Shown: piece after piece, positions 3,837 through 56,512 of the stretch
How the letters are laid out: each line of letters starts with the position of its first letter
Position numbering within the stretch: position 1 is the stretch's first letter
Virus genome (UHGV): UHGV-0076294
Strand: one strand, 5' to 3'
Origin: a virus
DNA: 64,000 bases
Program-made: the position numbers and the translations under genes
The notes under the pieces: generated by a model
Told to the model about the DNA's origin: nothing
The model's database searches: none
What the model saw: only the letters and a program-made list of their open reading frames with translations

Positions 3837-4445
3837 ATGAACGAAATTACTTTGGTTCGTTTTATCGAAGCGATGCGACTAAACGAAGCTAATCCTCACT
3901 CTCCGTTATTTATCGATTTAATGGAGGAAGAAGTCGAAGGGTTCTTAGCGTACCCGCGTTTGAAAGCGTATTTCGAACGTAAAACACCAACCGCTTACGA
4001 AAAGCTGATGTACGCGTTAGATAACCGTACTACGCTAAATAATACGCCGTTTAAAGCGCTGGAAGCAATAGACCCTACCGGGGGTGCAGGTATCCCACAA
4101 CGTGTTGTGTTCTACTACATCGACAACGGTCGTATTAAGGCCGACGTTGTAAATTGGATCTCTGAAGGGGAAATTCCAGAAACGCGTACTTTTAACCTCT
4201 GCCCGGTAGAAGAAGGTTGGGTCGCAGGAACACATTATTCCTATCCGTATCAAAGCATCAAATCACCTTATCTGTACCCGGTGTATTTGGATGACGTTAC
4301 GCCAGGCAAATGTGTTCCCGTTACCAATCTGATTTGTTTACTGACGATGGAAGTTGTTGCGTCTGACGCAGGCCAGGCTTGGGTTGAGCAATCGAAAAAT
4401 ATCCAAAACTGGCAGGGGATGGGTTACAAACTCTACCAGCCGTAA
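3837..4445 (+). CDS. hypothetical protein
   Basis: 202-aa ORF with AAAGGAAA RBS, bounded by terminators on both sides. Confidence 0.6.
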   Translation: MNEITLVRFIEAMRLNEANPHSPLFIDLMEEEVEGFLAYPRLKAYFERKTPTAYEKLMYALDNRTTLNNTPFKALEAIDPTGGAGIPQRVVFYYIDNGRIKADVVNWISEGEIPETRTFNLCPVEEGWVAGTHYSYPYQSIKSPYLYPVYLDDVTPGKCVPVTNLICLLTMEVVASDAGQAWVEQSKNIQNWQGMGYKLYQP

Positions 4446-4451
4446 TACCAC

Positions 4452-4495
4452 GAGAGAACCTTCGGGTTCTCTCCCTTCTCTTTTATTTTTTTCTT
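4452..4495 (+). terminator. intrinsic terminator
   Basis: GAGAGAACC-ttcg-GGTTCTCTC hairpin followed by long T-rich run. Confidence 0.7.
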
Positions 4496-4528
4496 TTTAC
4501 ACCACGCTCCGTGAATATGGAGGTGGAC

Positions 4529-7033
4529 ATGTTAAAAGTTGAACGTATTGTACTTAAAGGGTTTACCGGAATGGGATTACACGAAATCGAAACCTTCGAT
4601 TTTACTATCCATTCCCCAACCACCATTATCCTCGGTGGTAACGGCTGCGGTAAGACCAGCTTACTGTCCGTGTTTCTACCTATCGCACCTTCGAAATCCG
4701 AATTCCGTGACGGGGGTTCTTACACCAACATCTGTTTGGTTAACGACCATCGTTACAAATTTAAGGTTGCACGTAAAGGCAACTCACTGGTTTGCGATAT
4801 CGAGAACCTGACGACGGGCACCAAAATCGTCGAACAAGGTAATGCGAAAGTGTATAACTCTCGTGTAGAAGAAATCACGGGCATTACAAAAGAGATTAAA
4901 GAGTTACTGAACGGAGAAGTGCTTTTAACGGATGCAGGAACGGAACTGCGTCGTAAGTGGTTCTACCGTTTAAGTACGTCAGACTTAACTTACGCGTTAG
5001 GTTTTTATCAACGTTTACGAAAAAACCTGACGATGTTAAACGGCGGTATTGAAATCACCAGCCGCAAGATTGCAGAGTTGCGTACCCGCGTGATTGATAA
5101 CGAGGAAGAACGTCAGCAGTTAGCAACACGGTTAAAAGCATTAGAAGTGGATTTACGTGAAGTCAACAAACAGATTGAACAACTGCCTGGTCTGAATCGC
5201 GACGTTACGGTGGCAACGATTCAATCGCTATTGCTTAAAATCGAAGCACCGATTAATGCTATCTTGGAACACCGTGGCGGATTACCTACGGAAGAACGGG
5301 TAGAGGAAGCACGACGCGTTGAAGCCACTGCCCGTGAAGCGGTGGTCTCTGCTGAAACAGAACTGTCCATGCTAAACAAAGATTTGTCTTTGTTGATGGA
5401 CGAGTCTACCCGCCAAGATTACCTGATGCGGAATCACGAAGGGTTAAAGAACACGGTTGCAAAACTGCGTGAGTTATTAAAGCAGTGGGACACCGAACAT
5501 CTTTTCCCTGAACTGTTTGCGGAGACCGTTAACATCGACCAGCTTAAAGCAGCGACGGATGCGCGTGTCTGGGGACAACGTTTAGGAACAACGCTGGACG
5601 CCATTAAATCGACAGAACGGTTGAACGTACTGGAAGAGAAACTGTTGACCTTAGACCAAAACTCATCTGGGTTGCGTGACCGACTACAACGCGTTGAAAA
5701 CGTATTGCAGAACCTCAACCACGAACGGAATCACTATTTGGAAACCGCCGAGGTTGATTGTCCGCAGTGTCAATTTAAATTCCGTCCGGGCGTGCGTCGT
5801 TCTTTGCCTGAATTGGAAGAAGCCATTCGTGGACAAATGGAGCAACGTAATACGTTACAGACTCAGCTTGATTCCGTATTGCGAGACCGTACGGAATTAG
5901 AGTCGGACGTTAATTACATGCGTCAAGTACGAGAAATCGTTTTAACATACTCGAAAGACCCGGTATTGAGTTTGTTCTTTAAACGTCTCCAGGAGCGGAA
6001 TGTCTTTACGGATAACCGCAGTCAATTCGGCAGTTTGTGTGCAGAGTTCGATCGTGAACTTTATTCCGCAATTGAATACCACGAAACGAAACACCGTTTT
6101 GCTAAAGCGGAAAAAGAGTGGGCAAACGCAGTTGCAGCGGTAGGTAACGTTGACGGTGCACTACAGCAGAAAATTGCCTTCCAGCAGGAGCGTTTGGGTA
6201 AGGCGACAGAAACGCTCTCAGAGCGCCGTAGAGAGCACGCAGTTGCTAATGATACCTTTTGTTATCTAAACGAACTTAAAGCCACTGTAGACAATTTTAA
6301 TGCGGTTTTTGAGCGTTTAGAGAACGATGTTAAGGTAACATTAACCAATACGGTGGTCGAAACGTTATTAAACGCCCGAGAAAACAAGTTGGATGCGTTC
6401 ACCACAGCACGGGAACGGTACCGTCAGATGGAAAACGAGCTCAACCAACTTACTGCGTTAGAAAAGGAGTTATCGGATTTACAGGCACAGCAATTCAATA
6501 ACAAACTGATGATTCAAGCGTTCTCGCCCGAGAAAGGGGTATTACGCAAATACTTCTACAACGCTATCGTGAGAATCACAGAATTAATGACGCGCTATAT
6601 CGAACAAGTCTGGACCTACCCTATGCGGGTCATGCCGTGTGACTTAACCGATGGTGACTTAGACTACACGTTCCCAGTGCAGTTAAAAACCCATCCTGAA
6701 CCGGTACCTGACGTGCGGAAAGGGTCGAAAGCACAGCGAGCCATCTTTAATTTGATGTTTCGTTTAACCGCTTACAAAGCCCTGAAACTTCATCAGTATC
6801 CGCTACTGTTGGATGAACCGTCAGAAGGGATGGATGAGGAACACCGAAATAACCTCGTCGGGTTTATTAAAACCCTGGCGAATTCCGGTGAGTTCTCTCA
6901 GTTACTGGTGGTATCTCACGAAGCAGAAATTCATTCAAAACTTAACGAAGCCGCATACTGTGTTATTGAACCTGAAGGCGTAACACTGCCTGCGGTATAC
7001 AACGAGGGAGTAAAAATTGTCTACGCAAACTGA
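4529..7033 (+). CDS. Rad50/SbcC-like recombination ATPase (T4 gp46-like)
   Basis: Walker A GGNGCGKTS, long coiled-coil middle with CPQC zinc-hook-like motif, Walker B LLLDEPSEGMD and VVSHE H-loop near C-terminus. Start moved to ATG 4529 after GGAGGTGG RBS (ORF track 4511). Confidence 0.7.
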   Translation: MLKVERIVLKGFTGMGLHEIETFDFTIHSPTTIILGGNGCGKTSLLSVFLPIAPSKSEFRDGGSYTNICLVNDHRYKFKVARKGNSLVCDIENLTTGTKIVEQGNAKVYNSRVEEITGITKEIKELLNGEVLLTDAGTELRRKWFYRLSTSDLTYALGFYQRLRKNLTMLNGGIEITSRKIAELRTRVIDNEEERQQLATRLKALEVDLREVNKQIEQLPGLNRDVTVATIQSLLLKIEAPINAILEHRGGLPTEERVEEARRVEATAREAVVSAETELSMLNKDLSLLMDESTRQDYLMRNHEGLKNTVAKLRELLKQWDTEHLFPELFAETVNIDQLKAATDARVWGQRLGTTLDAIKSTERLNVLEEKLLTLDQNSSGLRDRLQRVENVLQNLNHERNHYLETAEVDCPQCQFKFRPGVRRSLPELEEAIRGQMEQRNTLQTQLDSVLRDRTELESDVNYMRQVREIVLTYSKDPVLSLFFKRLQERNVFTDNRSQFGSLCAEFDRELYSAIEYHETKHRFAKAEKEWANAVAAVGNVDGALQQKIAFQQERLGKATETLSERRREHAVANDTFCYLNELKATVDNFNAVFERLENDVKVTLTNTVVETLLNARENKLDAFTTARERYRQMENELNQLTALEKELSDLQAQQFNNKLMIQAFSPEKGVLRKYFYNAIVRITELMTRYIEQVWTYPMRVMPCDLTDGDLDYTFPVQLKTHPEPVPDVRKGSKAQRAIFNLMFRLTAYKALKLHQYPLLLDEPSEGMDEEHRNNLVGFIKTLANSGEFSQLLVVSHEAEIHSKLNEAAYCVIEPEGVTLPAVYNEGVKIVYAN

Positions 7034-21084: not shown

Positions 21085-22017
21085 ATGTATTTGTACAAAA
21101 GTAAAAAAGTAAAAGGTATTAAAGACTGCCTTAGACAAATGGGGAGTCAGCATCTAGAAAATGTCATGGAAGAAAATCAAACAAAAGAAAATCCTGTCTC
21201 GAAATGGATAAAAAAGAATCGTAATCATCTAACCAATAGCTTTATACCGTATAATGAAGATTTAGGTCTCAAAGATCCACGTTCCCTTCACGCTCAAACA
21301 TTGGCAATTGGATGGCTATACGGCGGGGCTTCCTTAATATCCGATCGAGCACTTAGAGAACTTGTTTTTGAGACTGAGATGCCCAGTAAATTCCCTGAAG
21401 AATGGTTGGACTTTATACCTACTTGGACTGTGGCAATCGATGTAGGTAAAGAGGATGAGACTTTCTTTCTCGGTTATCGAAAAAATGGGAAGAGAAGGTT
21501 TATTATAATTGCTACAAATACTGATTACGGGTTAACAGAAGGCGTTACCACGATTGCCACTTGTTCGTTAGAGCTTCGTAGTGCAGGAAACGGACTTGTG
21601 GAAATCGACTATGCCGACGGTGTGGAGAACGAACAAGAAAAGATGCTATGGTTATCTCTGGCCAAAGCCGCCACATCGATGATATTTCTGTGTACGCTAA
21701 TCCCACCTAATCTCAAAACGTCTTACAATGACGTTAAGTTCAAAGAAATCAAAAAGAACGGCAGTATTAGCTACGAAGTCAAACCTCGTGAACGTGATGT
21801 TAAAGTGGATATCACACCAGGACAAGTAAAATATCTAAAAGGATTTAACACCGACTTGAAAGCCATGCAGGGTATCAAACACGCTAAAGCTGCGCACATT
21901 CGTCGTGCCCACTGGCGTAGATACTGGGTTGGTCCAAGAAACGGTGAAAGAAAAAGAAAACTTTGCTGGATTCCACCGACATTTGTTCGCGGCTACGTAC
22001 CCCACACGCAAGACTAG
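21085..22017 (+). CDS. hypothetical protein (paralogue of 22028-22912)
   Basis: C-terminus AAHIRRAHWRRYWVGP...WIPPTFVRG nearly repeats in next gene; RBS TAGGAG. Confidence 0.6.
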   Translation: MYLYKSKKVKGIKDCLRQMGSQHLENVMEENQTKENPVSKWIKKNRNHLTNSFIPYNEDLGLKDPRSLHAQTLAIGWLYGGASLISDRALRELVFETEMPSKFPEEWLDFIPTWTVAIDVGKEDETFFLGYRKNGKRRFIIIATNTDYGLTEGVTTIATCSLELRSAGNGLVEIDYADGVENEQEKMLWLSLAKAATSMIFLCTLIPPNLKTSYNDVKFKEIKKNGSISYEVKPRERDVKVDITPGQVKYLKGFNTDLKAMQGIKHAKAAHIRRAHWRRYWVGPRNGERKRKLCWIPPTFVRGYVPHTQD

Positions 22018-22027
22018 GAGAATTATA

Positions 22028-22912
22028 ATGTTAAGACGCAGAATTTATGGAGACACGCTTCGACGTATTAGTGAAGCTATAGAGACTGCACACAAAGACT
22101 TGTTTGGTCTGAAGGAAGATCGTTTTCTAACGTTTGTCAGGGAACACAAGAGGCAACTTCCTGTAACCTTTCTGCCCGTTAACGACCCAACGTACCGTGT
22201 GTTCGGCACCACCAAACAGGTGCCGTATTCTATTCGCCAATCGTTAGGTTTGGGCTGGCAATACGCAGGTATTGAAATTATCTCTGATAAAGAGTTGATG
22301 GGACTACTTGCAGACACAGAACGTTTAACGGATATTCCGTACGCGTGGATTGAAGCAATTCCTTCATTCACCTTTTCCGTGACTGTAAAGATTAACGAAC
22401 TACCCGCTACGCTCTTTATCGGTCGTCGTAAATTCGAAGGTGAGGAAGTATTGTTCGTTTTACGATGGGTGGAGATAAATCAGCGGCACTGTTGGTCAAC
22501 CAAGATTTATCGGTTCAACAGAAAGGCAGATGACTTTGTTAGTTTAGAGCCTTACTTTGCTAACGAGTCAAAGGACGAGGAACTTCTGGATGAGGTACAT
22601 ATCGGTTTATATCTTTCCTCGCGGGTGAAGAAATCGGAACGCGAGAGACGGGAATACCGTGGTAGAACGACACGTTACGTACCTGATACAGAAATCCTCC
22701 CACGCAGAGAACCTGTCGTCGTTGACGTAAGTCCAGTACAACGCGAAGACTTAGAAAAACAACGCAGGGAAGGCAGGAGAATCTGTTTAACGCCTCATCG
22801 CGCAGCACACATACGCAGGGCTCATTGGAAACGGGTCTGGTGTGGGCCAATGACAGGACCACGCTGGCAGGAGTGGCGATGGATTGCACCCACCTTTATA
22901 TCTGGTTTTTAA
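22028..22912 (+). CDS. hypothetical protein (paralogue of 21085-22017)
   Basis: Start set at ATG 22028 after AGGAGAA RBS (ORF track 21905 overlaps upstream gene); C-terminus AAHIRRAHWKRVWCGP...WIAPTFISG. Confidence 0.6.
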   Translation: MLRRRIYGDTLRRISEAIETAHKDLFGLKEDRFLTFVREHKRQLPVTFLPVNDPTYRVFGTTKQVPYSIRQSLGLGWQYAGIEIISDKELMGLLADTERLTDIPYAWIEAIPSFTFSVTVKINELPATLFIGRRKFEGEEVLFVLRWVEINQRHCWSTKIYRFNRKADDFVSLEPYFANESKDEELLDEVHIGLYLSSRVKKSERERREYRGRTTRYVPDTEILPRREPVVVDVSPVQREDLEKQRREGRRICLTPHRAAHIRRAHWKRVWCGPMTGPRWQEWRWIAPTFISGF

Positions 22913-29223: not shown

Positions 29224-30494
29224 AACTCGATCAGATAACCGGCCAGATTAACAAAGGTCAATCGGCTATCGACAACTCGGTTAATACCGCGAAGAATGCG
29301 GTTAACCGAGTACAGTCTACGGTAGAGAACGCCGAACGTGGCATTCAGAATACCGTAGATAAAGTCAGCCAGCTTTCCGATCGTGCCGGTGAAACCTTTA
29401 ACAAACTCATCAGCGGTGGAAGTGAACTGACCTCAAAAATCGGTAACCTATTCGGCGGTAGTGACATTGCCAGCGTGGGGGGTACCAAAACAGCAGGCAG
29501 CTCCACCTCCGGTGTTTCCCCAGGACAAAAAGTTCCTGGGTTTGCTTCTAACACTAAAGAGACACTACCTGTTCTCGATCCGCAGAAGCGTGATGTTTCA
29601 GAACCTTTCAAAAAGGTTAATGAGGAAGGGCTTAAAGCACTAGGGTATCTGTCACCCGGTGACTCAGGAAGTTTACTGGGCAAAGGTTGGGACAGCATTT
29701 CGTCGCTGAGTGATTCTCTTCTATCAGGAATTGGTACTGACTTCTCCTCCGTGAAGAAGCGTCTCGAAGGAACGCTGAATATCGCAGGTCAACTGGCTAA
29801 GCTTCCTTCAGAAATCAGTCATGAAGTCAACAACTTTATGTCTGAAGTCAACAGTATGCGTTACCAGATAACCTCGGTTATTGATGACGTACAACACACG
29901 TTTGACAGCTATAAAGACCTTGACGATTTCTTAGCCATCGACAACTTGATTAACAGTTTCAAAGGCAGCGACAGTTTTTCAGCGTTAGACATTAACACGT
30001 CGTCTGCTTTGATCTACGGTCTGTCTACGAAACTTAACAGTTACGGATTGCCTGCAAAAATCGACCCGATGATTCAGGCTATCAGTGACGATCAAGCAAA
30101 AGAGGCGCTTTACGGGGAGCTGATGATTCAAGCTGCTGCTACCGGTAACTTGGACTCAACAGAATATTACCTGAACAAACTTCAGGAAGGTCAGGGCAAA
30201 CAGATTGCGGAAACCGTGATTCAAAACATCATGGCTAACTTGCGTGTGGAAACCGGTACGAGTTTTAGTACGTACGGTACACGAATGTTAGCATTATTTA
30301 AAGCACTTGATGCCAAATGGGATAAAACGAAAAACGTTACTCCTGAAACTACCGAACTGAAACTTTATACTTACGCAGGCGCTAACGCGATACAAGCGCT
30401 GATGACCACCGAAAAACGTAACTACGTTTTAGCGGCAGGTAGTGTAAGTTATCAGTCTACCGATGAAATCGTGGAAGACTACTTTGCAATCTAA
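29220..30494 (+). CDS. hypothetical Ser/Gly/Thr-rich protein
   Basis: 424-aa ORF with low-complexity S/G/T-rich N-terminal half; start overlaps previous stop (ATGA). Confidence 0.55.
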   Translation: MKLDQITGQINKGQSAIDNSVNTAKNAVNRVQSTVENAERGIQNTVDKVSQLSDRAGETFNKLISGGSELTSKIGNLFGGSDIASVGGTKTAGSSTSGVSPGQKVPGFASNTKETLPVLDPQKRDVSEPFKKVNEEGLKALGYLSPGDSGSLLGKGWDSISSLSDSLLSGIGTDFSSVKKRLEGTLNIAGQLAKLPSEISHEVNNFMSEVNSMRYQITSVIDDVQHTFDSYKDLDDFLAIDNLINSFKGSDSFSALDINTSSALIYGLSTKLNSYGLPAKIDPMIQAISDDQAKEALYGELMIQAAATGNLDSTEYYLNKLQEGQGKQIAETVIQNIMANLRVETGTSFSTYGTRMLALFKALDAKWDKTKNVTPETTELKLYTYAGANAIQALMTTEKRNYVLAAGSVSYQSTDEIVEDYFAI

Positions 30495-30504
30495 GAGGCC
30501 GGAT

Positions 30505-31326
30505 ATGTCCGAACCACAATTACTGCGCTCCGTATTAAAGAAAATCAAAAGTCAAAGTGAAGACATTCAATCACTGGCTTTAACGCTCGGTTATGCGCCG
30601 GGTGACTTACGTTCTAAATCCTACGTGAACGCGTCAAGCATTGTACTCACGCCTGATGAGCTCCTTGCTTATGTCCTATACCTGAGACGGTTAGGCTATG
30701 TTTGTGCTTTACCTGAACAACTCCCGTTTACCGATGGGGTGAACCACATCAACTTTTACTCCAACGGTCGTACTACCGTGGGTAAGATGATCAGTAACTT
30801 CTACGCGAAACCTGACGGGTCAAAATTCGACACGATACACGGTCAGTTCCTGACGTTAGAAGGTTACTATCACTACTTGCGTATCGTTGACTACATGTTA
30901 CACATGGGTTACTCGATTAAAACGATGGGACGTCTGGAGACTGAATTTCCTGATATTCTTCGTTTACGTACGTTAACGGGTGCTGAGTGTATTCAGTTAG
31001 GTCGTCGATTAAAAGCGGCAATTTACGGGAAAACGGATTACCGTCCCGGTGAGTTTAGTAGCTACGCGACTGGCGCATTTAAGAATGCGCTGCTGCGTAA
31101 GTTGCACCTGTTGCAATACGACGGGTCTTGTTTAGGTAATACCCTGTCTTACTGCCATTCGATGAATCTTCCGTTCTTGCATTATTACGTCATGAACGGT
31201 CGGGTGATTACACCACCACATTCTGAATGGCTTCCTAATCTGGTGGTTTCTATTGTTGAAAACATCGACTATAACGACTCGACGTTCGATATTACGGACG
31301 TCAGTGAACGTATGGGATTAATCTAA
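30505..31326 (+). CDS. hypothetical protein
   Basis: Start set at ATG 30505 after AAGAGG RBS (ORF track 30463 lies inside previous gene). Confidence 0.5.
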   Translation: MSEPQLLRSVLKKIKSQSEDIQSLALTLGYAPGDLRSKSYVNASSIVLTPDELLAYVLYLRRLGYVCALPEQLPFTDGVNHINFYSNGRTTVGKMISNFYAKPDGSKFDTIHGQFLTLEGYYHYLRIVDYMLHMGYSIKTMGRLETEFPDILRLRTLTGAECIQLGRRLKAAIYGKTDYRPGEFSSYATGAFKNALLRKLHLLQYDGSCLGNTLSYCHSMNLPFLHYYVMNGRVITPPHSEWLPNLVVSIVENIDYNDSTFDITDVSERMGLI

Positions 31327-31985
31327 TGGGATTGTTCGATACCCTAGCGCGGCTGGATAAAGCGCAGGAAGAAGAAATCATTCGTGTTGCTGGTGAGTCC
31401 ATTAAACACGAAGTCGAAAAGGAATACTGCGTTTGGGTAAAACCTACGCAAGCGGGATGGGATTGGCTCCACGCACAAGAAGCCAAGATGTTCATGGACA
31501 TTCTCATGCCGATAGAAGGTGGGCGTCGTCGTATCCGTATTAAAGAAGACGGTACGGCACAGCTAACGCTTAAGCGTAAGTTCCAGGACGGAAAGGTTGA
31601 AGAGAATTCGGATATCGGTATTAGTTCCGCACTCTCTTTTTACAAAGACGGTTATTTGGCACACCTGGTGAAACGTATTCACTTAGAGCCGGGTGAATTA
31701 GCCGAGAAAGGGGCTAAGCATTGGGATATTGATATTTTCACTATCACCACCGGACACCCTGCCATTGAAGTTTCAGCTGACTTTAACGATCTCATCACCG
31801 AGATGCGTAGTAGCACCAGCGTTGGTGACTGGGTGAAAGTTGAACTGGAAGTCGAACGTTACGAGATTGCAGATGTGCTGTCTGTAATTCCGTTTGAGTT
31901 TGACGGCCATATTCCGGCTACGCCGAAAGATCCTGAAGACCAAGAATATCTTCGTGATTACTGGGATTCAGTTACCCGTATGTAA
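31326..31985 (+). CDS. CYTH-like (triphosphate tunnel metalloenzyme-like) protein, tentative
   Basis: Pattern HEVEKEY, then RRRIRIKEDGTAQLTLKRK, then KVELEVERYE resembles CYTH hallmarks (ExExK; RxR...LTxK; ExE). Spacing of first motif imperfect. Confidence 0.4.
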   Translation: MGLFDTLARLDKAQEEEIIRVAGESIKHEVEKEYCVWVKPTQAGWDWLHAQEAKMFMDILMPIEGGRRRIRIKEDGTAQLTLKRKFQDGKVEENSDIGISSALSFYKDGYLAHLVKRIHLEPGELAEKGAKHWDIDIFTITTGHPAIEVSADFNDLITEMRSSTSVGDWVKVELEVERYEIADVLSVIPFEFDGHIPATPKDPEDQEYLRDYWDSVTRM

Positions 31986-31991
31986 CACCTA

Positions 31992-32028
31992 CCCTACTCC
32001 CAGACAGGAGTAGGGTATTTTCATTTTT
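31992..32028 (+). terminator. intrinsic terminator (CCCTACTCC family)
   Basis: CCCTACTCC-cagaca-GGAGTAGGG followed by TATTTTCATTTTT. Confidence 0.7.
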
Positions 32029-32048
32029 ACCCTAAAGGAGAATTTACC

Positions 32049-32417
32049 ATGCAAGCTCAGTTTTTTAATACCCCCAACGGGTTCGGTTTTAGATTCCCTG
32101 AATTTGTTTTACCAAAACAAGTTATTGAAGTACCCTTCCCCCGTTATGTGCTATTAGGACTGCGCACTGTACTTGCCAACTTTTCGGGAAAGACTGTGGA
32201 AATTCGTGTGTGGTCAGGTTCGGGAAGTCCTGGTGGTGTTTTGTTTGTCGATTACAATTGGATTAAAAGAACAGGTTTTCCGCTTGTACGAAAAGTTGAA
32301 GCTGTACACGGATTATCCTTCCACACTCTACTAGGGGATTTATCGTTTCCTGAAACCGGCGATTATTCTTCTCCTGCGGATGACGAATACCAAATTCATC
32401 TTGTTTTGTTGAAATGA
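32049..32417 (+). CDS. hypothetical protein
   Basis: 122-aa ORF; RBS AAAGGAGAA. Confidence 0.45.
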   Translation: MQAQFFNTPNGFGFRFPEFVLPKQVIEVPFPRYVLLGLRTVLANFSGKTVEIRVWSGSGSPGGVLFVDYNWIKRTGFPLVRKVEAVHGLSFHTLLGDLSFPETGDYSSPADDEYQIHLVLLK

Positions 32418-32477
32418 TTTTTACAGTTGGGAACAAACTTATGTCTCCCAAGACTGCGTTTAAGCGGAGAAACAATT

Positions 32478-32942
32478 ATGCGTGGATATATTCTCGATCT
32501 TGCAATTTCTGTAGAAGAACTTGTGGAAAAACTCGGCGGTACCGGTCATGGGCTTCATGGGAAGACCAAAAGCATAGCTCATATTCTCGAACCAAAATAC
32601 GAACGGAAACTCCACATGATTGCTTCCGTTCGCAACAAAGCCGCTCACAGGAGAATTCTTCCTGATCGCATAGACGACTATGAACAGGCTGTGGAAGAAA
32701 CGAGGCTCTATTTAGAAGAGCTGATTGGGGAAGAAGAACGGAAACGTCGTTGTGAAGAGGAAATAAATCCCAGCTGTCTGGAACGCGAAGCGATGTGGAG
32801 AGAACGGGCAGACGAGGCCAAACGACGTAACGAAGAGAAAAGATGGGACGATATGAGTGTAATAGAAAAGATAGGTTGGGGTGCCGGTATTGCAATCATG
32901 GGAGCTGCGGTTGCGTACCTTAAAATAAAGTCTCGTGACTAA
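32478..32942 (+). CDS. HEPN-like protein with C-terminal transmembrane helix, tentative
   Basis: Start set at ATG 32478 after GGAG RBS (ORF track 32427). IASVRNKAAHRR fits the HEPN R-x4-H motif; charged coiled region; C-terminal IGWGAGIAIMGAAVAYL hydrophobic anchor. Confidence 0.35.
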   Translation: MRGYILDLAISVEELVEKLGGTGHGLHGKTKSIAHILEPKYERKLHMIASVRNKAAHRRILPDRIDDYEQAVEETRLYLEELIGEEERKRRCEEEINPSCLEREAMWRERADEAKRRNEEKRWDDMSVIEKIGWGAGIAIMGAAVAYLKIKSRD

Positions 32943-32956
32943 ATCGGGTATCGGAA

Positions 32957-33502
32957 ATGAAACAAATACAGTTAACTGATCACGTTAATGCGTTTAAACA
33001 CTTTCTGGATAACGCGGGTATAAAACCTGGCGAACAGACAGACGCATGGACTGCACGTGTTTACGGAAGTATTGGCAAAGTCTGTGAGTCCACGACAACA
33101 CAGGACGGGTTGTTTGTTGCTAAAGCAGTAGGTATTGCCTTGTGGGATATTGCTGCTTTGGTTTACGTGATGAATAACGGGGATTTACGTCCCCTTGAAA
33201 AATCTTTACACCGACTACTGGCCATTAAGAAATGGAAAAATGAACATCCTGAGTCAATCGCGATTACGTTGATGCCAGAAGCGGTACTTGCTATCAAAGC
33301 GGTACGCAGTTGTACCGCCCGTGCACAAATGGAGCGTCGGTTACATCTCACGACGCTCTTTTATCAATTGGCCAGAATTGTAAAGATGAACGGCCTAATC
33401 TTCGACCGGGTTCTACAGAACGGACGTATAAGTTGGACAGAAGAACTAAGTAGTTCTCCGTTCTATACAAAACTGAAGCTTAAAGATATTTTGAAGGATT
33501 AA
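32957..33502 (+). CDS. hypothetical protein
   Basis: 181-aa ORF; RBS region ATCGGAAATG. Confidence 0.5.
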   Translation: MKQIQLTDHVNAFKHFLDNAGIKPGEQTDAWTARVYGSIGKVCESTTTQDGLFVAKAVGIALWDIAALVYVMNNGDLRPLEKSLHRLLAIKKWKNEHPESIAITLMPEAVLAIKAVRSCTARAQMERRLHLTTLFYQLARIVKMNGLIFDRVLQNGRISWTEELSSSPFYTKLKLKDILKD

Positions 33503-33503
33503 C

Positions 33504-33812
33504 ATGGAAAACTATTCGGGTTGGGCGATTTCGCAGTGCATTGGCTATTCTTTACGTTCTTTAGTGCGTACACTTTATAACAAAAACTCGGGTGAAGCTA
33601 TTACACCGCAGTTATTGGGCAAACTGGAAGTCGAAGTTAACTATAAACTAAAACAGTTACTCGACAACCACGTAAGAACAATGCGTTGGGAGTTCTTGCT
33701 ACGTGGTAAGAAGCCTTCAATTACCGTTGTAGCAGAAGGTAGTGAAATCGTACTGCAATCCAACGCAGACCTGTTTGAAATTTTAACTGAACTAGAAAAG
33801 GACAAAATCTAA
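33504..33812 (+). CDS. hypothetical protein
   Basis: 102-aa ORF; stop overlaps thyA start (TAATG). Confidence 0.5.
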
Positions 33813-34852
33813 TGAAACAGTATTTAGCGTTAATGCAAGACATTCTGGATAACGGCGTTGTCAAAAAAGACCGTACGGGCGTAGGGACACTTTCTGTATT
33901 TGGTCGCCAACTACGTTTTGACCTGAAAGAAGGTTTCCCATTAGTTACTACGAAAAAGGTTCACCTGAAAAGTATCATTCATGAACTGTTATGGTTCTTG
34001 AACGGTGACACTAACGTGAAGTACCTGCAAGAGAATGGGGTAAGAATCTGGAACGAGTGGGCGAATGAAGAAGGGGAATTAGGCCCTGTCTACGGACACC
34101 AGTGGCGAGAATGGATGGATACCAAACTGGTTTATCTTTGGGACGAGCGTAGCAAGGACGTATTGAGAAAACGAGGATATCGCTACGTTGGGACTATCGC
34201 AAAGGACGATCCTGAAGAAAGTATCGTTATTTATCGCAAATCTCACGACCAGATCAGCAAAGTTATCCAGCAACTTCGTGAAGACCCTGACTCCCGCCGT
34301 ATTATCGTTAGTGCCTGGAACGTAGCCGACCTAGACGATATGGCACTTAACCCATGTCACAACTATTTCCAATTCTACACAACGGAAATGACGTTGCCTG
34401 AACGACTGGATTGGTACGAAGTAAACGAACCGGAAAAATTTGCGAACGCACCACTTATTAATCACGAAGATATCGATAGCGAAGAACGACTTCACGAAAT
34501 TTTAGATCGTGAAGGTATCCCACGTCGTAAACTTTCGTGTTTTTACATGATGCGGAGCAACGATTACCTACTCGGCGCGCCGTTTAACGTCGCTTCTTAC
34601 GCGTTGTTAACCCACATGATTGCTCAACAACTCAATATGGTTCCAGACGAGTTAGTTTACAGTGGCGTGGACGTTCATCTGTACTCTAACCATCTGGAGC
34701 AGGCAAAACTTCAACTTACTCGCGAACCTTACCCGCTACCTAAACTGGTTATCAAACGTAAACCTGATTCTATCTTCGATTACAAATACGAAGACTTCGA
34801 ATTGGTTGGATATCAATCGCACGACACAATTAAAGCTCCCATAGCTGTCTAA
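33812..34852 (+). CDS. thyA: thymidylate synthase (ThyA family) with two internal insertions
   Basis: Near-identity to E. coli ThyA over conserved blocks (MKQYL..., DRTGTGT-like, [17 protein letters not shown], catalytic [29 protein letters not shown]); 346 aa versus ~264. Confidence 0.9.
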
Positions 34853-55708: not shown

Positions 55709-56512
55709 ATGGACAACTTGACCCTACGTTACAATTGCGTAGCGTTAGCCGGTGTTAATGCTCCAGCCACTCTGGAGAAAGACGCGGATGGTTATTACCG
55801 CGTATTATTGGGTGCTCTGAATATTTTTAACTCGGAAGGGATTTTCTACGCCTATAACGAGTCTAAGCACGTATTCGAGCGCTCTAACATTTTCATGCGT
55901 AAAGTAAAAGCCGGTAACCTGTTCGGGGAAGAAGACCACCCTGCACCAGAACCGGGAATGACCGAAGCGCAGTGGATTGACCGTAACGAATGGATTGAGA
56001 CGAAAAACGTCTGTATGCACATTCGTGAAGTCGAAGTTATTCCAACCGATCAGACCTGTAACGGTTTGCCAGTAATGGAAATCTGGGGCTGGATTAAACC
56101 GAACCGTGAACGTGGTCCGTATCTGGCAGAAGCGTTAGAGAATCCACATCAAAACGTTTGCTTCTCTCTGCGTGCTATCGTACGTGAAGGGTATGTTGGT
56201 GGGGTGAAAACGCGTCGTCTGGATCGTCTGGTCACCTTCGACTGGGTTATCGAAGATGGGCTTCAGATTTGCAACAAATACTCCGCGATTCAGCGTGGTA
56301 GCAAAGTGGCTCAGGAATCTACCCGTGTCCTGCTGGACCGTCGTGTATCGCTTCAGGCGCTGGAAGACATCCTGCGTAATCCAAACACCACTTCAACTAT
56401 CGCAACGGAATCTCGTCGCGGTGAAGTCCGTGCTTTGGCTCAGGAGTATCTGGCAATTGCCAACAAACGCACTAACCTGCGTGTTATGGGCTTAGGGAAC
56501 GGGAAGTGGTAA
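55709..56512 (+). CDS. hypothetical protein
   Basis: 267-aa ORF; GGGGAAAA RBS. Confidence 0.55.
   Translation: MDNLTLRYNCVALAGVNAPATLEKDADGYYRVLLGALNIFNSEGIFYAYNESKHVFERSNIFMRKVKAGNLFGEEDHPAPEPGMTEAQWIDRNEWIETKNVCMHIREVEVIPTDQTCNGLPVMEIWGWIKPNRERGPYLAEALENPHQNVCFSLRAIVREGYVGGVKTRRLDRLVTFDWVIEDGLQICNKYSAIQRGSKVAQESTRVLLDRRVSLQALEDILRNPNTTSTIATESRRGEVRALAQEYLAIANKRTNLRVMGLGNGKW

Follow-up and report, generated by a model that had tools for sequence, protein, structure and literature searches.

A predicted capsid-packaged tunnel protein and a neighbouring HEPN-anchor accessory protein in an SPN3US-like jumbo phage

The 64,000 nucleotides of the virus genome UHGV-0076294 analysed here (in the following "the window", one strand, 5' to 3') come from an SPN3US-like jumbo myovirus, a relative of the Salmonella phage SPN3US. 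They include two genes, E (31326-31985) and G (32478-32942, the second gene downstream of E), whose open reading frames an earlier note on this sequence had placed correctly. The earlier note recognised a CYTH-like enzyme in E and a membrane-anchored HEPN protein in G, and proposed that the two form a nucleotide-signal and effector module. Both domain calls are right in kind, while the module is not upheld. We favour a joint reading, with a probability of roughly 0.7, in which E is a tunnel phosphohydrolase packaged in the capsid and G is a separate, recombining accessory gene for a membrane HEPN protein. Both E and G belong to already known kinds of protein.

Gene E and the SPN3US head protein gp225

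Gene E is the orthologue of SPN3US gp225 (SPN3US_0225 / YP_009153519). The two proteins are of equal length and 59% identical across all 219 amino acids (aa), an identity that is the highest for E among deposited phages and is reached by SPN3US and its relatives; in the PHROG collection E matches family 7768 (E 5.6e-98). The order of the genes corresponding to gp223-gp225 and thyA is likewise conserved between SPN3US and the window phage. The stop codon of the upstream gene D and the ATG of gene E overlap by one base, which indicates that gene E belongs to the upstream transcription and translation unit.

In SPN3US, gp225 was found by mass spectrometry in purified virions and in tailless heads, with about 88-114 spectral matches per replicate in purified heads, and was newly recognised as a target of the prohead protease gp245, which removes a 24-residue N-terminal propeptide from it (PMC10052503). 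This protease cleaves after A-X-E and favours Val at position P4 and Ser at P1' (PMC10052503). Both gp225 and the E protein carry the site V-A-x-E/S after residue 24. Across 32 homologues of E, which reach down to 42% identity, E24 is invariant and A22 and S25 are each kept in at least 90%. The helix formed by the propeptide is probably a capsid-targeting signal. The gene is under strong purifying selection, with a ratio of nonsynonymous to synonymous substitution (dN/dS) of ~0.04. By transfer from its SPN3US orthologue, the E protein is most likely packaged in the capsid.

The tunnel fold of the E protein

For gp225 neither a fold nor a function is given in the literature, and the assignment of E to the tunnel enzymes rests on structure prediction. 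The AlphaFold model of E (mean predicted local distance difference test score, pLDDT, 88.4) has a beta-rich, well-defined domain from residue 26 onwards, preceded by an N-terminal helix with a pLDDT of 48-63 over residues 1-30. The domain displays the eight-stranded antiparallel beta-barrel tunnel by which triphosphate tunnel metalloenzymes are recognised. Its fold relatives are PH1012, a plant TTM3-like cyclase, E. coli YgiF, NE1496 and the class IV adenylyl cyclase of Yersinia, and further the triphosphatase domains of the mimivirus and vaccinia capping enzymes, Vtc2/4, thiamine triphosphatase, Cet1 and Pct1; the Foldseek result is consistent with these. The CYTH or tunnel call of the earlier note is therefore correct at the level of the fold.

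The motifs on which that call had been based, HEVEK (residues 28-32), RRRIRIK (67-73), LTLKRK (80-85) and KVELEVERYE (171-180), are present in the order expected of CYTH proteins and are mostly invariant. Their first member, in contrast, was read loosely. The pattern of the first strand is E29-x-E31-x-E33, with E29 nearly invariant, so that the acidic pair is present, but the next residues in register are E33 or C35 and the canonical Lys of the ExExK motif is absent. Invariant among the 32 homologues are E31, E33, R68, R69, R71, T81, K83, E92 and E93, as well as H113, R117, D134, D136, K171, E173 and E175, and judged from this alignment the conservation of the motifs exceeds chance by far. The basic and acidic residues R68/R69/R71, K83, H113/R117, D134/D136 and K171/E173/E175 sit at alternating positions of predicted strands, and from this alternation the conserved side chains would point into the tunnel. 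As the full tunnel-type set of acidic and basic residues is conserved, E is predicted to be, most likely, an active metal-dependent phosphohydrolase acting on a triphosphate-bearing substrate.

Pfam, searched with all ten proteins of the neighbourhood, reports no family for E at E <= 1 and no CYTH match (PF01928), the profile that the earlier note had suggested as a check. A profile of E against the sequences of the PDB recovers nothing significant or relevant, and against 5.8 billion proteins it recovers the jumbo-phage family alone, with no Pfam domains and no bridge to cellular CYTH proteins. Two database sources already name individual homologues of E "CYTH domain-containing", and a survey from 2021 noted CYTH triphosphatases scattered among jumbo phages (Iyer et al., PMC7824862). 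Compared with the CYTH/tunnel metalloenzymes (BH2851, PH1012, YgiF, NE1496, class IV adenylyl cyclase, thiamine triphosphatase, Cet1 and the vaccinia and mimivirus capping enzymes), E differs in the lack of a Pfam CYTH or PDB sequence match and in the Lys-free E-x-E-x-E of strand 1. It further differs in its predicted cleavable capsid-targeting propeptide and in virion packaging, as seen in gp225.

The HEPN domain of the G protein

The ATG of gene G at 32478 is preceded by GGAG and is the start common to all homologues. The sequence SVRNKAAH, in which the earlier note had seen a HEPN ribonuclease (RNase) motif, corresponds to residues 50-57 of the protein, and R52, N53 and H57 are invariant both within the clade of ~224 kb genomes and in a 40-sequence alignment of remote homologues. 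A profile built from residues 1-85 and compared with 1.84 billion representative sequences retrieved 339 proteins at E <= 1e-3, with E-values down to 1e-16. The RN-x3-H motif occurs at about the same position in nearly all of the best 147 of these 339 relatives, and the subfamily can be described by the signature G-A-x-G-x-G-L-H-E-K ... S ... R-N-K-x-x-H-E.

The G protein itself yields sub-threshold Pfam matches to DUF4145 and Abi_2, whereas remote relatives do match DUF4145 (10 of 51 and 12 of 40 scanned, best E 5.5e-7). The families HEPN_Apea, RiboL-PSP, Swt1, DUF3644, Cthe2314 and HepT-like are each matched by one to five relatives, and no Pfam family outside HEPN matches more of them than DUF4145. 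The link of G to HEPN is thus, at the level of profiles, transitive: it leads from the G profile to the relatives and from these to DUF4145 and other families of the HEPN clan. In this form, with the invariant R-N-x3-H motif, the HEPN call holds at the level of the superfamily. The AlphaFold2 model of G is all helical, with a pLDDT of 85-95 over residues 1-90. The best Foldseek matches are the HEPN toxins 5yep and 6m6u (probabilities 0.89 and 0.82), with weak E-values of 0.35-0.6, and Csm6 and AF_0298 rank lower. Narrow and broad profiles of G found nothing significant among PDB sequences, the best match being HepS (E 0.69), aligned over the RN-x3-H region. No match to G was obtained in PHROG, in PADLOC or by tblastn in the phage database.

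We interpret G as a predicted RNase, which is the most plausible reading of its sequence, as invariance of R-N-x3-H is expected for catalysis. The gene is fast-evolving, with a dN/dS of ~0.3 for the N-terminal domain. HEPN enzymes need two R-x-H motifs, and this need, together with the GxxxG-type motif of the membrane anchor, suggests that G forms a dimer. A ligand-sensing domain (CARF, SAVED or other) is not found in G, which consists of the HEPN domain, a linker and the anchor alone.

The linker, the anchor and the relatives of the G protein

Within the clade the G protein measures 136, 154, 175, 180, 182, 186 or 191 aa, and this variation is due to the linker. The linker alleles differ by large indels and by short duplicated units (e.g., AEINSAEIN), while the flanking HEPN domain and the anchor are conserved. 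The hydrophobic segment IGWGAGIAIMGAAVAYL (residues 132-148) is conserved. The charged region of the earlier note is real, and so is the C-terminal hydrophobic segment in which the note saw a transmembrane helix, but the hydropathy of this segment is borderline in the allele of the window. In a remote relative of 136 aa (P0111) the hydropathy of the anchor is 2.0. Among the best 147 of the 339 relatives, transmembrane segments after the HEPN domain are predicted in 100 (68%), and exactly one such segment at the extreme C-terminus in 47 (32%).

Full-length homologues of G are confined to the ~224 kb clade. Three more remote relatives have enough flanking sequence, and all of them lie in mobile elements: a prophage, with tail-assembly genes as neighbours, a conjugative element, with genes for TraG and TraI, and a phage-like contig. 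By profile similarity, G belongs to a wide, uncharacterised HEPN-plus-transmembrane family of prophages and conjugative elements.

The remote HEPN-anchor relatives (L011-L013, L015, L017) usually adjoin a small uncharacterised gene. These genes encode, for example, a 174-aa zinc-ribbon protein, a 117-aa protein whose gene overlaps the start of its neighbour, and a 122-aa protein; they are unrelated to each other and to gene F, which separates E from G in the window. It is possible that they are partner genes.

Single-protein defences with a DUF4145 or HEPN domain have been shown experimentally for RAZR and Ishtar, and the prophage-borne tRNase HepS offers a further precedent (PMC13043305). With these G has in common a helical HEPN domain with R-N-x3-H and its encoding as a single small gene on a mobile element. 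It differs in carrying a membrane anchor where RAZR and Ishtar have zinc-finger or C-terminal sensor domains, in scoring below the Pfam threshold, and in residing on a jumbo phage of the lytic type. Membrane-associated HEPN proteins of bacteria were predicted by Anantharaman et al. 2013 (PMC3710099), in groups with an N-terminal WP-type transmembrane region, with an Abi2/Swt1 HEPN domain after the transmembrane region, or with a HEPN domain followed by two transmembrane helices and a zinc ribbon. G resembles these in joining a HEPN domain, predicted to be cytoplasmic, to a transmembrane region, and one group likewise has the HEPN domain at the N-terminus and transmembrane helices after it. The arrangement of HEPN domain, spacer and single C-terminal anchor, as in about a third of the relatives of G, was not singled out in that study (PMC3710099).

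Independence of E and G and alternative explanations

According to the earlier note, E would make or destroy a nucleotide signal that controls the membrane HEPN effector G in an abortive-infection or counter-defence module, with or without participation of F. Two observations favour this proposal: both domain calls are right, and E, F and G lie side by side in every clade member seen. Several others oppose it, and we regard the module as highly improbable. In SPN3US, the heads contain the orthologue of E, and the prohead protease cuts it. The sequence places a conserved terminator hairpin between E and the pair F and G, which speaks against a common operon of E and G. As the earlier note had itself named a failure of the genes to co-occur in relatives as telling against the module, it is significant that E is found in 63 deposited phage genomes and G and F in none, the slot behind E being variable. 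The divergence of the two genes is also discordant. Between the window and one homologous locus (L004) the synonymous divergence (dS) is 0.29 for E and 0.87 for G, whereas between the window and another (L006) it is 2.6 for E and 0.27 for G, a pattern that implies recombination between E and G. Effectors of nucleotide-signal modules of the CBASS, type III CRISPR and Thoeris type are expected to carry a ligand-sensing domain, which G lacks, and no Pfam CYTH match occurs among the called neighbours of its remote relatives in four contexts. Taken together, the packaging of gp225, the terminator, the variable slot, the discordant dS and the sensor-free G argue that E and G do not form a module; judged from these gene comparisons they are independent genes, adjacent through genome layout alone.

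Other explanations concern the partners and activities of the two proteins. F and G may constitute a two-gene toxin-immunity or sensor-effector pair, with the small F protein as the restraint or the trigger of its HEPN partner. Their adjacency is kept across three divergent alleles, both genes are missing from deposited phages, and remote relatives of G often have a small neighbour gene (L015, L017, L011), in one case an overlapping one. These small neighbours are unrelated to F, however, and occur on both sides of the HEPN genes; no antitoxin or nucleotidyltransferase domain can be recognised in F; and SPN3US, which is without G, has in gp226 a protein of the same length and position as F, with an 8-residue SGxPGxVL motif in common that lacks statistical support. 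We consider such a pair unlikely. Slightly less likely still is that G is no nuclease but a protein that perturbs membranes, in which the HEPN domain has a structural or sensing role and for which the Cas13b accessory Csx28 would be the comparison. The small size of G, its single hydrophobic helix with the GxxxG-type motif and its helical spacer would suit this role, but the invariance of R-N-x3-H across the 40 remote sequences is what catalysis would predict, and the N-domain dN/dS with a fixed motif is also compatible with catalysis. For E, the alternative is a cytoplasmic enzyme of the nucleotide pool, which would hydrolyse unwanted nucleoside triphosphates like its MazG-like and ThyA neighbours and would not be delivered by the capsid. 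Iyer et al. 2021 (PMC7824862) suggested such a role for jumbo-phage triphosphatases of the CYTH and MazG kinds, and the gene adjoins the nucleotide-metabolism block. As gp225 is found in purified heads and cut by the prohead protease, and as gene E is coupled to the upstream virion genes and followed by a terminator before the downstream block, we think it unlikely that E is such an enzyme in place of a capsid-delivered one; the two roles are compatible with each other.

The reading that we prefer, a capsid-packaged E and a separate membrane HEPN protein G, has to be held against a number of observations. The head location is that of the SPN3US orthologue, at 59% identity, and the missing Pfam CYTH match and ExExK Lys might mean that E is inactive or of unusual chemistry; its activity, its substrate class and its ejection into the cell are what we infer. 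Similarly, G scores 14.8-16.6 bits against DUF4145 (PF13643), for which the gathering cut-off is 23.1, its fold-search E-values are weak, and its membrane topology and RNase activity are deduced from the features described above. The hydropathy of the anchor is borderline (hand-computed Kyte-Doolittle mean 1.54 over 19 residues and 1.68 over 17) and leaves it unflagged at a threshold of 1.6, and the pLDDT of the model falls below 50 there. Finally, all the examined members of the ~224 kb clade have E, F and G next to each other, which taken alone would be compatible with an interaction, and terminators in these phages may be leaky, so that the three genes could share some transcripts.

Proposed roles and significance

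Under the preferred reading, E would be made late, as the last gene of an operon of virion proteins. The N-terminal 24-residue helix would direct the protein into the prohead, where the prohead protease would cut after V-A-G-E24, and the mature form (residues 25-219) would be stored inside the capsid. The comparison with other proteins inside the heads of these phages, the virion RNA polymerase among them, makes it probable that E enters the cell along with the DNA and this polymerase, and there it would hydrolyse a triphosphate-bearing substrate. The slot behind E, flanked by the virion block on one side and the nucleotide-metabolism block on the other, is variable, and in this slot G would be a clade-specific, recombining accessory gene. 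Its HEPN domain would face the cytoplasm, tethered to the inner membrane by the C-terminal anchor via the variable helical spacer, and two copies would dimerise into a composite R-N-x3-H RNase site. It would most likely act alone, like the HEPN proteins borne by prophages, with no signal from E; by cleaving RNA it would serve to compete against other phages or elements, or it would attack host RNA close to the membrane.

A bolder version of this scheme can be formulated, to which we give little credence. In it, the E protein of SPN3US-like jumbo phages is an active tunnel enzyme, packaged in the capsid and co-injected with the virion RNA polymerase, whose target is either the 5'-triphosphate end of the earliest phage transcripts or a triphosphate-bearing alarm or defence nucleotide of the host, while the HEPN-spacer-anchor family is a widespread single-gene membrane RNase defence of mobile elements. 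If true, E would be to bacterial viruses what the RNA triphosphatases of tunnel fold, likewise packaged in virions, are to poxviruses and giant eukaryotic viruses.

The module of the earlier note, if true, would have been a new signalling system, and with its rejection a false lead is averted. What is gained is that gp225 and its relatives are now testable as capsid-delivered triphosphate-tunnel phosphohydrolases, which could be at work together with the injected RNA polymerase in the opening minutes of an infection by a jumbo phage. For G, a compact HEPN subfamily is delineated that usually has a membrane anchor and occurs in phages, prophages and conjugative elements. This subfamily is a reasonable candidate for a single-gene factor of competition between elements.

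The slot downstream of gene E

The features of the region are listed in Table 1. The hairpin directly behind gene E is the best terminator match within 27.5-36 kb of the window. It is kept from genus to genus, in the clade and in SPN3US, Caitlin and pSal-SNUABM-04, where both arms have changed while their self-complementarity is retained.

Table 1. Features of genes D to I, of thyA and of the head maturation protease in the window
Feature	Position	Strand	Description
Gene D	30463..31326	+	Positional counterpart of SPN3US gp224, PHROG 652
Gene E	31326..31985	+	219 aa; SPN3US gp225 orthologue, triphosphate-tunnel (CYTH-like) fold
Predicted N-terminal propeptide of E, residues 1-24	31326..31397	+	Low-confidence helix; SPN3US gp225 loses 24 residues
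Protease site V21-A22-G23-E24 / S25	31386..31400	+	Fits gp245 motif A-X-E, P4 Val, P1' Ser
Intrinsic terminator-like hairpin	31990..32027	+	11-bp stem, 6 G-C pairs, T-run; directly 3' of E
Gene F	32049..32417	+	Clade-specific 122-aa protein, own AAGGAG ribosome-binding site
Gene G	32478..32942	+	154 aa; tail-anchored DUF4145-like HEPN protein, clade-specific accessory gene
HEPN domain of G, residues 1-85	32478..32732	+	AlphaFold2 model, domain profile, Pfam matches of relatives
G-x-x-G-x-G-L-H-x-K motif of G (G20 to K29)	32535..32564	+	HEPN subfamily signature, conserved
R52-N53-K54-A55-A56-H57 of G	32631..32648	+	HEPN catalytic-type R-N-x3-H motif
Charged helical linker of G, residues 86-131	32733..32870	+	Hypervariable length and sequence between alleles
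C-terminal hydrophobic Gly/Ala-rich anchor of G, residues 132-150	32871..32927	+	Probable transmembrane helix, conserved unlike linker
Genes H (181 aa) and I (102 aa)	32957..33812	+	Joint counterpart of single SPN3US gp228 (289 aa), PHROG 10269, weakly MazG-like
Thymidylate synthase (thyA)	33812..34852	+	Pfam PF00303, E 1.7e-110; 346 aa
Head maturation protease	55709..56512	+	PHROG 3014, E 1.3e-104; enzyme expected to cut gene E protein

The content of the slot behind E differs between lineages. In SPN3US it holds gp226 and gp227, which are unrelated to F and G: comparisons of F with gp226 and of G with gp227 by BLASTP and by profile gave no supported homology. In Machinaviruses it holds one unrelated gene. 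In Proteus phage 7 (L009) an unannotated 311-aa open reading frame (4201-5136), absent from SPN3US, follows right after the conserved terminator; this frame is flanked by homologues of gp225 and gp226, the latter unannotated (5212-5574), and may be a mobile insertion of the endonuclease type.

Gene F belongs to no Pfam, PHROG or PADLOC family and has no tblastn match in the phage database. A reading of F as a minimal nucleotidyltransferase antitoxin (G-S...D-x-N/D) was rejected, as the spacing is too tight for the intervening helix and a family match is missing. PADLOC returned no matches for E, F, G, H or I.

The split of the gp228 counterpart into genes H and I is present in every member of the clade examined, and given this consistency it is conserved and no error of sequencing. 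The thymidylate synthase covers the full 266-position Pfam profile, which leaves about 80 extra residues, and the gene in SPN3US is likewise long (1,017 nt, about 338 aa). In a copy of the element deposited as an E. coli "plasmid" (L019), an extra 106-aa gene (4996-5316) that is not in the window lies between the gp228-counterpart genes and thyA, which is further gene flux in the nucleotide-metabolism block.

Phage and genome context

The gene content of the window includes a UvsX-like recombinase, split beta subunits of the virion RNA polymerase, a MazG-like protein and a tail sheath, as well as a 2377-aa protein of a tail-fiber family (PHROG 3201) with a transglycosylase domain. No tRNA genes were found in the window. 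A megablast search of deposited phages with this region found no match, which places it in a lineage different from that of SPN3US. Contigs of ~221-228 kb from many samples of Salmonella, Shigella and E. coli encode proteins nearly identical to those of the window. The same element has been deposited as a circular "plasmid" twice, with 221,873 bp from E. coli 98232 (urine, Egypt; NZ_CP173450.1) and with 222,441 bp from Enterobacter ludwigii (gull cloaca; NZ_CP134650.1). Such deposits of a phage suggest a carrier state, pseudolysogeny or contamination of the cultures. Elsewhere in the window (21085-22912), two overlapping adjacent open reading frames of 310 and 335 aa each match PHROG 6160 and are apparent tandem paralogues.

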